DNA of 64,000 nt from a virus (IMGVR_UViG_3300034126_000020:1-64000); one strand, 5' to 3'; counted from the first letter of the stretch, positions 35,734 to 39,147 are shown. Made by a program: numbers and translations. Notes: a model not told the origin generated them from the letters alone.

Positions 35734-36102
35734 TTACGACATCAGCCAGATCGGCTTGATGTCTTTGAGTGGATATGCATCACCGTCAACAACGATCATG
35801 ACAGTGTCCGTTGAATCGCCCGAGTAGGTGACACCTTGGATAGACCCCATCCCAGCGGGAGTCTTGACCAACATGCCAACCGACGGGTTCCACATGACGC
35901 CTTCGCCATCGAACTCCACTGTGCCACCTTCAGCGTCCGGACTGGCCAGACTCTTCTCTAAGCGAGCGATGATCTCGCTGTTCATTGAGCGGTGGCTGCC
36001 ACGGGCCACTTCTGCGATACGTTCACGCATGCCATCAGGCAGACGGACAACGAACTTATCGGCAGTACGGCTGGAGTAGATTGCTTGTTTCAAAGGACGC
36101 AT
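35734..36102 (-). CDS. amrZ: AmrZ/AlgZ-like Arc-family ribbon-helix-helix regulator with a non-host C-terminal domain
   Basis: [52 protein letters not shown] matches my recollection of Pseudomonas AmrZ residues ~1-52 almost exactly. Confidence 0.88.
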
Positions 36103-36852: not shown

Positions 36853-37167
36853 TTAGAATGCGTTACGCAGCAGTTCGGCTTGGAATGCTTTATCAGCAGC
36901 CTGCTCCAACAGCTCGTCCACTTTGACGCGGTCTTTCATGCCGATGGTCTTCATGACCAGTTCATCGGATTCTTTCATCAACTCATCAGCCTTGACAGAG
37001 TTGCTCTGAGCCAGTTGCGCTTTCTCTGCACGCTTGGCTTTTGCCACGGCTTGGAATTTACGTTTGCCTTTCCAGCTACGGATGGCATTCTTGATTGCGC
37101 CCCAGATAGAAACTTTCACTTCTACTTGTGGCTTGGATTCTTCGAGTTTACGGATGAGGTCGAACAT
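36853..37167 (-). CDS. Hypothetical helical protein
   Basis: Likely start MFDLIR at 37167 with GGAG SD, downstream of a promoter motif. Confidence 0.65.
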   Translation of the reverse strand: MFDLIRKLEESKPQVEVKVSIWGAIKNAIRSWKGKRKFQAVAKAKRAEKAQLAQSNSVKADELMKESDELVMKTIGMKDRVKVDELLEQAADKAFQAELLRNAF

Positions 37168-37185
37168 GTTGATCTCCATTGATCG

Positions 37186-37278
37186 GGTTAGGTTGTTACT
37201 CACTGCAATCATGTATTGTTTCAAAAAGTTTGAATCGAATCGGCATAAGAGCCAGGGCAGTTGCCCTGGCTCTATGTC
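37186..37278 (-). promoter_or_regulatory. Terminator-promoter cassette (copy 2)
   Basis: AGAGCCAGGGCA/TGCCCTGGCTCT hairpin + TTATGCCGATTCGATTC...CAATACATGAT. Confidence 0.6.
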
Positions 37279-37579
37279 AGCATTTCGTGCAGGCCATCTT
37301 GTAGAATTCGTTATTGATCTCGATGAGCTGATCAATCGATGTAGCGGTATGCAGTGCATCAATGAAGCATCCAGCCGCACCTTGGATGGTCTTCATCAAA
37401 TGCTTGGCGGCTTCGAACTCATCGCCCGAGAGTTTGTCATACGTGGTTCGTTTGACCAGTTGCAACATGACGTTCATGTGACTGGCAGTAATGCGCCCCG
37501 CCATCCAACGCTCAGGGATGTCTTTATGCCCGGGAGAACTGGTATTTGCAAAGGAAGTAGTAACGTGGACGAGTGACAT
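37277..37579 (-). CDS. Hypothetical protein
   Basis: Likely start MSLVHV at 37579 with GAGG SD. Confidence 0.55.
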   Translation of the reverse strand: MSLVHVTTSFANTSSPGHKDIPERWMAGRITASHMNVMLQLVKRTTYDKLSGDEFEAAKHLMKTIQGAAGCFIDALHTATSIDQLIEINNEFYKMACTKC

Positions 37580-37616
37580 GAGACACCTCAAATTCAAGAC
37601 TATAGGATTGGTATCT

Positions 37617-38498
37617 CGGCAAAACAAAAAAAGAAAGAAGTCTTGGGGCAATCGTTCGGACGCACCTCAATGGGAGATCAACCCCACCATAGGAACGACT
37701 ATCGACGATGCCCCGTAACCTTGTGTAGCGCTTGTCTTCCTCATCCCTCGAGCCCTTTCACCAAGTGCGTCATCGCGTAGTGCGAGGCCTTGCGTTAATC
37801 GGTCGTAGGTTTGGATCAGACTGGAGGCCATTGCCATCCAATTCAACCGAACTCAATCGGAATCAATAGTCATCAAATGTGTTCACTGACACGGACTATT
37901 GATTAGCTCTCGTGCACCTTAGGCACGCGCTGGATAGTCCGCTCAGACACTGCCGTGCGATGTCCCTCTGCTGGTTTCACAACGCACGCTTGCGACGCTC
38001 GTGCCATGAAGAGTACACCTTCTAAGCGAGCCATTTCTGGCACCGCCCTTGGGAGAAGACCTTTCCCCAAGTCCTGATGGTGTATCTTATCCGACGACGC
38101 AATTGCGCTCTTCTCTTGCTTAGCGAACGCACGATTGTGCTCTTCCGCTTGGGCAGACAAGGTGACAGCTAGGGCCAACGCCACGAGAGTGGAGAAGCCG
38201 CGGGTTCTGATCAGTAGCTCCTTAGAGGCTTAATTGAACGCTCATGAGTTATCAATGGTCTCCAGTGCTACGGTGCACCTACCGTTCCACGCGCCTTATG
38301 CGTGAGGTAGGGCACCGAAGTCACTGAAACGGATGAAACGGTACCGGTAATGCGCGGCGGGTCATCGGTCTCATTCGGCGGCGTCACGAGTGACACGGCC
38401 TTTAGAAGACGTTGTACTGACGACCAGACGCGGCGCACGGAACCTAAGATCGATCCGAACAATGGCACTATCCTTAGACGATGTCACAGTGCTACTAC
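37617..38498 (-). ncRNA. Candidate ~880-nt structured ncRNA (or long leader plus small ORF)
   Basis: About 970 bp between well-supported genes with only one weak ORF; several clear stems; GTATGTA at the 5' end; hairpin + long U-tract + TTTTGCCG at the 3' end. Confidence 0.4.
37903..38184 (-). CDS. Possible small exported protein (doubtful)
   Basis: Signal-peptide-like LVALALAVTLSAQA; no ATG start; lies inside the candidate ncRNA. Confidence 0.3.
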   Translation of the reverse strand: MALALAVTLSAQAEEHNRAFAKQEKSAIASSDKIHHQDLGKGLLPRAVPEMARLEGVLFMARASQACVVKPAEGHRTAVSERTIQRVPKVHES

Positions 38499-38550
38499 AT
38501 ACAACTCGAGCCAAACGTATTTATTTACCCGGAGTCCTTATGTCCTTGAT

Positions 38551-39147
38551 TTAACGGGGTAATCTTGGCCGGGGAATGTTACGACCACGACGATAACCCG
38601 ACGGGACTTCATCGTCAGCGGCAGGATCGGGATCGGGATAGTCTTTGTTGAGACGTTCAACGATCTCCTCAACCGACATCCAGACGATTGGGTAGTTAGC
38701 GCCCACCGCCATGCCGTTGGTGTCTTGCTGGAACTTCTCCTCATCCTTCCATGCAGCCAAAGCACCCAACAACGAATCACGTGTACTGATCTCAGAACAC
38801 ATGACGTAGGTCGATTGACCCGATGGCAACCCATGGAAGTCCAGCGTCCAGCGCTTTTCATCAGGACTGTTGTTGTTCTTGAAGAGGTCGACCTGTGTGA
38901 TCGCGCCCTGCTTGGTGATCATGAACGCCATCATGGTCATGGAGACACGGGGATGGCTGGCCAGTTTCAAGCGACCGCTCACCACGTCAGCGATGTTCGG
39001 GCCAGTGCCGGACAATGGGTAGATGAAGCCTTCTTTGCTGAAGTACGTGCCGATGTCAGCTTCGAGTACCTTGAAGTGTACGCCTTCGTTGGCCTCGTGG
39101 ACCTCAGGGAACCCGACCATGCCACGGCGGTAGATTAGGAAGTTCAC
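38551..39147 (-). CDS. Possible inactive paralogue of the upstream HslV-like peptidase
   Basis: MNFLIYRRGMVG parallels MTAIVYHDGKLIG; ATGA coupling to the upstream gene; no N-terminal Thr. Confidence 0.5.
   Translation of the reverse strand: MNFLIYRRGMVGFPEVHEANEGVHFKVLEADIGTYFSKEGFIYPLSGTGPNIADVVSGRLKLASHPRVSMTMMAFMITKQGAITQVDLFKNNNSPDEKRWTLDFHGLPSGQSTYVMCSEISTRDSLLGALAAWKDEEKFQQDTNGMAVGANYPIVWMSVEEIVERLNKDYPDPDPAADDEVPSGYRRGRNIPRPRLPR

Follow-up and report, generated by a model that had tools for sequence, protein, structure and literature searches.

This work concerns a segment of about 880 nucleotides (nt) in the genome of a jumbo phage, IMGVR_UViG_3300034126_000020, which is 276.8 kilobases (kb) long in the IMG/VR collection and has terminal repeats. 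The first 64 kb of this genome, referred to here as the window, were analysed, and all coordinates are window positions. The segment, called the unit below, is read on the minus strand and is flanked by two minus-strand genes, one of 198 amino acids (aa) ending at 38551 and one of 100 aa starting at 37579. An earlier note, made from the sequence alone, had described it as a candidate large structured RNA and had left the impression of a gene-free stretch. With moderate confidence, based on comparison among related phages, we read it as a minus-strand transcription unit that is self-contained, spans ~875 nt and belongs to a phiKZ-related jumbo phage; it would encode two small proteins and also form an elaborate conserved RNA fold.

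The features of the locus, from 5' to 3' on the minus strand, are as follows (ORF, open reading frame):

38516..38530, minus: A+T-rich block GGGTAAATAAATACG that most relatives retain, 15-30 nt upstream of TATG
38480..38501, minus: invariant 22-mer TATGTAGTAGCACTGTGACATC with TATG at 38498-38501, identical in 11 of 11 phages
38268..38468, minus: ORF-A, 66 codons, start GTG at 38468 (or TTG at 38462), AAGGA at 38471-38475, stop TAG at 38268-38270, frame kept in 11 of 11 phages
38340..38444, minus: RNA domain I, a long irregular hairpin formed by consensus helices 2-6 within ORF-A, 15 of 30 pairs compensatory
38262..38327, minus: RNA domain II, a nested hairpin (three stems and an outer helix) with apical loop AUAAGGC, 11 of 23 pairs compensatory
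37903..38211, minus: ORF-B, 102 codons, AAGGAG at 38218-38223, AUC at 38209-38211, stop TAA at 37903-37905, frame kept in 11 of 11 phages
38146-38211, minus: Sec-type signal peptide of ORF-B, ending between AQA and EE, predicted from charge, hydrophobicity and cleavage motif
37911..37927, minus: hairpin CGUGC-CUAAGGU-GCACG at the 3' end of ORF-B (helix 19 of the consensus fold), a near twin of the domain II apex
37621..37902, minus: non-coding structured 3' domain (~285 nt), comprising the four elements listed next and further helices, with stops in three frames, an alifold z of -8.35 and 13 of 43 pairs compensatory
37861-37904, minus: hairpin of the 3' domain with an 11-bp perfect stem (37861-71/37894-904)
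37847-37860, minus: CCGA/UCGG hairpin of the 3' domain (consensus fold)
37822-37840, minus: further hairpin of the 3' domain (consensus fold)
37621..37721, minus: terminator-like long stem-loop (AGGUU/AGACU, GGGGCA/UGCCCC, apex GGGGUUGAUCUCCC) with the U-rich run at 37621-37638
37580..37620, minus: conserved leader of the next gene, outside the unit, seen in alignments (GCCGAGATACCAATCCTATAG ... GAGG ... ATG at 37577-37579)

Distribution of the unit

The phage genome encodes a multisubunit-RNA-polymerase (RNAP) beta-like protein. Its sole relative in GenBank is Pseudomonas phage pPa_SNUABM_DT01 (MW735835; DT01 below), whose authors report phiKZ-type virion and non-virion RNA polymerases (PMC8541153). 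Relatives were gathered by exact-match scans with the 22-mer TATGTAGTAGCACTGTGACATC and by a protein-anchored scan, and the unit was found in 11 distinct phages (the window, L014, L003, L004, L010, L011, L007, L009, DT01, L013 and L005), on which the comparisons below are based. From the 22-mer to the terminal U run it measures 851-902 nt in these phages, and it is confined to one small clade of Pseudomonas-type jumbo phages; among GenBank phages besides DT01, neither the flanking genes nor the unit are present. A second region similar to it in sequence was not found in the phage genome. The flanking proteins of the window and DT01 share merely 28-63% identity, while the 22-mer is identical and the terminal stem-loop region is 84% identical.

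In L005 (IMGVR_UViG_3300011868_000001) the unit stands in a different gene context, the flanking genes not being the same, and it thus behaves as an autonomous module. There (L005:2117-3070), two additional genes of 218 and 92 aa separate it from a homologue of the 100-aa downstream gene, and the upstream gene differs. Segment-wise identities are mosaic, in that the pattern of relatedness differs among ORF-A, ORF-B, the first hairpins of the 3' domain and the terminal stem, which indicates recombination between conserved islands.

Two conserved reading frames

Two minus-strand frames, ORF-A and ORF-B, are the only ones free of stop codons in all 11 phages. Over the ORF-A span (38268-38468) the other two sense frames hold 55 and 32 stops against none in the ORF-A frame, and over the ORF-B span (37903-38211) the counts are 48 and 50 against none. 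Antisense ORFs were excluded, since every plus-strand frame over these spans has stops among the relatives (18-58). The two ORFs do not overlap, ORF-A ending ~56 nt before the start of ORF-B, and together they occupy 510 of the ~880 nt (58% of the RNA); the gene-free appearance of the stretch was deceptive. In the 3' domain an open frame was met in 1 of 33 frame-by-sequence cases, which puts the chance rate of a 90-codon frame at ~3%.

The coding signal was assessed by an RNAcode-like count of codon differences with their mean BLOSUM score and by a column-shuffle test. For ORF-B, 141 synonymous and 368 non-synonymous differences gave a mean score of +0.71, compared with -0.77 and -0.49 in the other frames; for ORF-A, 78 synonymous and 270 non-synonymous differences gave +0.20, compared with -0.66 and -0.91. 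A true neighbouring gene scored +2.28 in the same count. The column-shuffle test was positive in the ORF frames alone (z 2.1-3.3 for ORF-A and 1.8-4.8 for ORF-B), and both show an excess of synonymous changes. Indel lengths are informative in close pairs alone, distant pairs being too noisy, and in such pairs indels of 3 nt fall within ORF-B versus 1 nt in the 3' domain. These comparative signals suggest that both ORFs are translated. No protein family was found for either of them in Pfam, PHROGs, PADLOC or NCBIfam, and the ESM Atlas contained no usable relatives. The earlier note had named conserved small proteins with coding-type substitutions as something that would speak against a structured RNA; what was found goes part of the way, with two frames open in every phage and a frame-specific coding signal, and the structure is conserved nonetheless.

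ORF-A is preceded in all relatives by AAGGA and an ATG, GTG or TTG codon, and its homologue in DT01 is annotated in GenBank as PA10_00292. The frame crosses domains I and II, the two hairpin domains with the strongest folding. From the frame and its signals, ORF-A is probably translated, with a poorly conserved product.

ORF-B measures 99-108 aa in the relatives. In all 11 phages, AAGGAG is followed after 6-8 nt by ATC, and no canonical start codon stands at such a spacing. The retention of AUC in every phage behind a strong Shine-Dalgarno (SD) sequence argues for selected weak initiation. The predicted N-terminus has the parts of a Sec-type signal peptide, namely a positive n-region, a hydrophobic core of 10-15 residues and a small-x-small motif. 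One or two basic residues (net +1 or +2 over residues 2-7) and a core with a Kyte-Doolittle value of 2.2-2.8 over 13 residues are present in all 11 phages, and a small-x-small site (AQA, VQA, AHA, ANA or ANS) in 9 of 10 homologous sequences; L009 has VQD, and L005 lacks such a site. This n-h-c architecture, followed by a long polar tail, is kept while the residues change freely. The ESM protein language model gave ORF-B a recognition value of 2454, which is protein-like. On other genomes, gene callers report truncated forms of 92-100 aa. The homologue in DT01 (L001, MW735835, 4279-4605, minus) is unannotated in GenBank despite an in-frame ATG nine codons in.

A conserved RNA fold

Folded as a single sequence, the 878-nt minus strand reaches -332.7 kcal/mol (z = -3.1, 20 shuffles); comparison among the relatives gave far stronger evidence. 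A consensus structure was obtained with RNAalifold on the 11-sequence alignment, and its energy was compared with that of column-shuffled alignments; as the structure was derived from the same alignment, neighbouring DNA was treated identically as a control. The resulting z was -8.9 for the 5' third (positions 0-300, the ORF-A part), -3.7 for the ORF-B part and -8.35 for the 3' domain; six coding segments from the flanks, whose identity is equal or lower, gave +0.65 to -1.9. Covariation across related loci, which the earlier note had proposed as a check, came out in favour of a conserved structure. Compensatory changes occur in 54 of the 139 consensus pairs, compared with 26 +/- 3 when partners were shuffled (0 of 500 shuffles reached 54) and 12-21 when partners were slid by 1-3 columns. 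Similarly, the covariation score was 0.273 versus 0.155 (shuffled) and ~0.07 (slid), and conserved pairs per column amounted to 0.21 in the unit versus 0.06-0.10 in the controls. A fold better than shuffled and compensation above controls, which mark conserved structured RNAs in general, are thus both found here, and as judged from the alignment the unit is a conserved, unusually base-paired RNA-level element.

Among the individual helices, those of domains I and II are convincing. In domain II, the AAGG of the apical loop is invariant and the ORF-A stop lies within the 3' strand. Here CACGC/GCGUG is replaced by CACCC/GGGUG or CACGG/CCGUG, and elsewhere in domains I and II a G-C pair becomes U-A or A-U at one position in five sequences. 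Some of these changes alter an ORF-A residue. In L005 the hairpins, including domain II, are kept in another reading frame, which indicates that selection in the 5' third acts on the RNA as well as on the open frame.

The two hairpins with a UAAGG-type loop in the unit, at the domain II apex and at helix 19, are among 5 in the whole genome. As a genome-wide motif this hairpin was rejected, 5 copies being average for any loop core. A long-range helix, 38096-38115/37750-37771, shows one clear compensatory event (L007) and several mismatches, and is regarded as tentative. The assignment to the minus strand follows from the gene context, the ORFs, TATG and the U run. In the 5' part the fold itself agrees, with z -8.8 on the gene strand versus -5.5 on the opposite one and G-U pairs in 66 versus 30 cells.

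When the sequence was read directly, every feature listed in the earlier note was found in place. The nested stems pair at 38271-76/38312-17 (CGGTGC/GCACCG), 38278-83/38306-11 (CCTACC/GGTAGG) and 38288-92/38300-04 (CACGC/GCGTG); the 11-bp stem of the 3' domain is perfect; and the CGTGC/GCACG, GTCAC/GTGAC and CTTGGG/CCCAAG hairpins are present. GTATGTA marks the upstream edge at 38496-38502, and the 3' hairpin with its U-rich tail corresponds to a long stem at 37639-37721 and the run at 37621-37638. The two copies of the 9-nt direct repeat CAGTGCTAC, at 38263 and 38487, are indeed there, and they are the only ones in the 277-kb genome. The repeat is at chance level: in 880 nt, ~1.4 repeated 9-mers would be expected, and distant relatives do not keep the second copy.

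The 5' end and its putative start signal

In the 277-kb genome the fully conserved 22-mer TATGTAGTAGCACTGTGACATC has no second site, even when 6 mismatches are tolerated, and it is thus not simply a generic promoter. For the phiKZ non-virion RNA polymerase (nvRNAP), experiments have defined TATG as the late-promoter signal, with initiation at the G (PMC4666361), and the sequence downstream of TATG matters, for reasons that are not understood (PMC4666361, PMC12809450). Non-coding DNA, which makes up 8% of the present genome, contains 128 of the 581 TATG copies, a 2.8-fold enrichment, and many of these directly follow GC-rich hairpins, as TATGCCG. On the phiKZ model, the predicted start of the transcript is the G at 38498, which would leave it with an invariant 5' end of 19 nt.

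At more than 30 intergenic sites, a perfect GC-rich hairpin is followed at once by (T)TATGCCG, often back-to-back on both strands (e.g., 11006/11038, 32926/32959 and 56893/56919). These sites look like composite terminator/promoter punctuation of the phage. A sigma-70 promoter scan found none in the region, and the A+T-rich block GGGTAAATAAATACG was not found as a repeated motif of the genome. A composite 'A/T-TAC N15-19 TATG' promoter motif was likewise rejected because it is not repeated in the genome.

Pairing of the leader with 37715-37725, which appeared in the consensus fold, was unsupported: the pairs never vary, and the best duplex differs among phages and is no better than that of shuffled leaders. 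A search of the phage genome for a partner of the leader gave a best non-self site (128675-128695) that falls inside the spread obtained with shuffled leaders. An exact copy of GTATGTAGTAGCACTGTGACA, 23 nt in length, is present at L016:3207-3229 (Lachnospiraceae MAG, i.e., metagenome-assembled genome, JAZOSF010000129.1), in an unrelated bacterium where the DNA appears to be coding; by chance, ~0.02 matches of this kind would be expected in the collection, and an array of clustered regularly interspaced short palindromic repeats (CRISPR) was excluded. The 18-mer matches in L015 and L016 were rejected as relatives, the DNA being unrelated.

The 3' domain and the terminator-like stem

The truly non-coding part of the unit is its last ~285 nt only (37621-37902). 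Over ~270 nt of this domain the three sense frames contain 64, 69 and 36 stops in the 11 sequences. A third ORF of 59 codons (minus, 37667-37846) was rejected, as stops interrupt it in L003, L004 and L007. In the main clade, the 3' domain is 76-88% identical, versus 56-61% for ORF-B.

In all relatives the terminal stem has a predicted stability of -33 to -40 kcal/mol and ends in AGACU, followed by a U-rich run of ~19 nt; a stable stem passing directly into a U run is the mark of an intrinsic terminator. A simple consensus terminator scan missed this stem because it is long and irregular. The stem exists as two alleles, with fold z of -2.8 and -2.2, whose distribution cuts across overall relatedness. 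L003 and L014 are 96% identical overall yet carry different alleles, which points to module exchange. The alleles, compared at window 37640-37721 and L003:5430-5510, share both their architecture and the apical GGGG(U/C)UGAUCUCCC hairpin.

Surrounding features

All genes neighbouring the unit are on the same (minus) strand, and an HslV-like gene lies upstream of the 198-aa gene. Just after the U run, a conserved block at 37617-37625 (minus GTTTTGCCG; plus CGGCAAAAC) resembles AmrZ-type operator half-sites; the phage has an AmrZ look-alike at 35734-36102 (Arc-like domain, Pfam E=5e-21). Further downstream, a mechanically listed ORF of 175 aa (36853-37380) overlaps the 100-aa gene (37277-37579) by ~100 nt. 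Relatives align to this ORF in one piece from residue ~39 on only, and its true start is therefore probably further downstream. A scan of the window for transfer RNA and transfer-messenger RNA genes found none.

Comparison with known systems

The earlier note had named GOLLD, ROOL and OLE for comparison, and a likeness to them did not hold up: an Rfam cmscan of the whole window gave 0 matches at gathering thresholds, and at E values up to 10 the region produced three noise matches of 12-17 bits to unrelated families. The unit shares with GOLLD, ROOL and OLE a size of several hundred nt and many covarying helices, and with GOLLD and ROOL the association with phages. Those RNAs are ORF-free, whereas the unit has two conserved ORFs over 58% of its length and no covariance-model match.

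Dual-function regulatory RNAs that also code include RNAIII/hld of Staphylococcus aureus, SgrS/SgrT and SR1/SR1P. Like the unit, they are conserved multi-hairpin RNAs that also encode a small protein; unlike them, the unit has two ORFs, is mostly coding, is phage-encoded and measures ~880 nt. As for a trans target or base-pairing region of the unit, no partner better than chance was found in the phage genome.

In the type I toxin mRNAs of the hok/sok kind, a hydrophobic toxin of ~50 aa is accompanied by the overlapping leader frame mok. Common to them and the unit are a compactly folded mRNA, an upstream leader ORF, a putatively membrane-targeted product, translation that would be expected to depend on the fold and a possible contact between the 5' and 3' ends. 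The unit differs in that ORF-B has 99-108 aa with a signal peptide of the cleavable type and the ORFs do not overlap. As for an antisense promoter of the hok/sok kind, a plus-strand TATG at 38300 is not conserved, and a 5'-3' helix is unsupported. The genomes of the single-stranded RNA phages MS2 and Qbeta are heavily folded coding RNAs in which the fold gates translation. They resemble the unit in the superposition of coding and conserved secondary structure and in weak or occluded starts under structural control; the unit, in contrast, is a transcript of a DNA jumbo phage, and the fold analysis revealed no gating helix that would cover the start of ORF-B.

Interpretation

In the reading that we favour, the nvRNAP of the phage would start at the G of TATG (38498), and the transcript would run to the long terminator stem. 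ORF-A would be leader-like, and ribosomes translating it would have to melt domains I and II. ORF-B, with several hairpins within it, would be initiated from AUC at a low, controlled level and yield a small exported protein, whereas the folded 5' and 3' domains would serve RNA stability, timing control or both; the parts of the unit may be coupled in their regulation. The original proposal of a large structured RNA therefore survives as regards the conserved fold, the covariation, the unit's own putative start signal and terminator and the minus strand, and fails as regards a purely non-coding nature, given the two conserved ORFs.

Several observations weigh against this reading. The fold of the 3' domain is mixed as to strand, with z -6.4 on the gene strand versus -8.1 on the opposite one. 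Changes by codon position number 61/57/88 in ORF-A (p=0.016) and 88/81/111 in ORF-B (p=0.07), which is a weak signal, and dN/dS (non-synonymous relative to synonymous change) is high for proteins, at 0.4-0.8, although such values are expected if RNA pairing restricts silent sites too. Homologues of ORF-A and ORF-B beyond this phage clade were not found. As regards ORF-A, ESM recognition is low (1464), so that it looks un-protein-like to the language model, and in L005 the register between its frame and the hairpins is shifted. For ORF-B, AUC is a very poor bacterial initiator, and AAGGAG is not start-specific in the phage genome, with 36 of 135 copies preceding a canonical start. AlphaFold2 models only an N-terminal helix of its product (pLDDT, the predicted local distance difference test, 57). 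Furthermore, the peptide motifs GLLPRAVP and RTIQRVPKVH overlap conserved RNA helices, and their conservation may thus be at the RNA rather than the protein level.

A tentative alternative, which we consider possible and still unlikely, is a dual-function RNA: the ~880-nt transcript would be translated, while the invariant 5' end and the folded domains on the 5' and 3' sides would perform a separate function at the RNA level. This might be the binding of a phage or host protein, ribosome capture by the UAAGG loops, or export or localisation from the phage nucleus. Such a role would fit a fold whose conservation matches that of bona fide structured RNAs (z about -9), with none in the flanking genes, and a 22-nt 5' end that is invariant, genome-unique and explained by nothing tested. 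It would also fit the twin hairpins exposing UAAGG loops, whose AAGG is invariant in 11 of 11 phages, as well as the constant length of the unit and a 3' domain more conserved than ORF-B. However, the complement of the leader, within the unit or genome-wide, is no better than for shuffled leaders, the long-range helices are invariant or weakly supported, and mRNA structure can serve stability alone.

That the unit is a pure large non-coding structured RNA with both open frames untranslated appears improbable. The strong structure through the ORF-A part, with compensations that alter encoded residues, the lack of a canonical start codon in ORF-B, the poorly conserved and un-protein-like product of ORF-A, and the occurrence of chance 90-codon frames (1 of 33 cases in the 3' domain) all accord with it. 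Against this stand zero stops in both frames in 11 of 11 phages, across lineages that are 50-60% identical, while the other frames have stops; a signal-peptide architecture kept as the sequence changes; SD-like motifs correctly spaced in all relatives; and, in close pairs, indels of 3 nt in ORF-B compared with 1 nt in the 3' domain. In addition, the coding score is frame-specific and no Rfam family matches.

An ordinary small two-gene operon (a moron) with incidental structure is disfavoured and very improbable. Promoter-like and terminator-like ends of its own, the variable gene context and the mosaic recombination pattern would suit such an operon, but the six neighbouring coding segments have z of +0.65 to -1.9 versus -3.7 to -8.9 in the unit, and compensatory pairs are far above both controls. 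A DNA-level element (an origin of replication, or a site of packaging or recombination) with hairpins as DNA structures is scarcely credible: the unique, invariant 22-mer has a palindromic core, CAC-T-GTG, the fold signal of the 3' domain is nearly strand-symmetric and mosaic breakpoints lie at conserved islands, yet the global extremes of the cumulative GC skew are at 85.6 and 231 kb and not at the unit, G-U pairs in the 5' part point to the gene strand (66 vs 30 cells; z -8.8 vs -5.5), and the open frames and SD signals are left unexplained.

Implications

The reading of the unit as a translated and folded transcript would have several consequences. Transcripts conserved both as proteins and as elaborate folds are rare in phages other than RNA phages, and the present case is a tractable one, as the relative pPa_SNUABM_DT01 is a cultured Pseudomonas aeruginosa phage. 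The invariant 22-nt start region may report what a phiKZ-type nvRNAP needs downstream of TATG, or it may bind some factor. For genome scans the locus carries a warning, since 'ORF-poor, hairpin-rich' gaps can hide genes without canonical starts.

More speculatively, the unit might represent a new class of large 'coding ribo-architecture' in nucleus-forming jumbo phages, a view that we hold only tentatively. The conserved folded domains on the 5' and 3' sides, the 19 invariant nt at the 5' end and the UAAGG loops would then constitute an RNA machine, with the translation of ORF-A as the switch and the AUC-initiated exported protein as the output. If this is true, such a machine may act in the capture of ribosomes or 30S subunits, as a handle for an RNA-binding protein, or as an export or localisation signal for the mRNA of a secretory protein leaving the phage nucleus.

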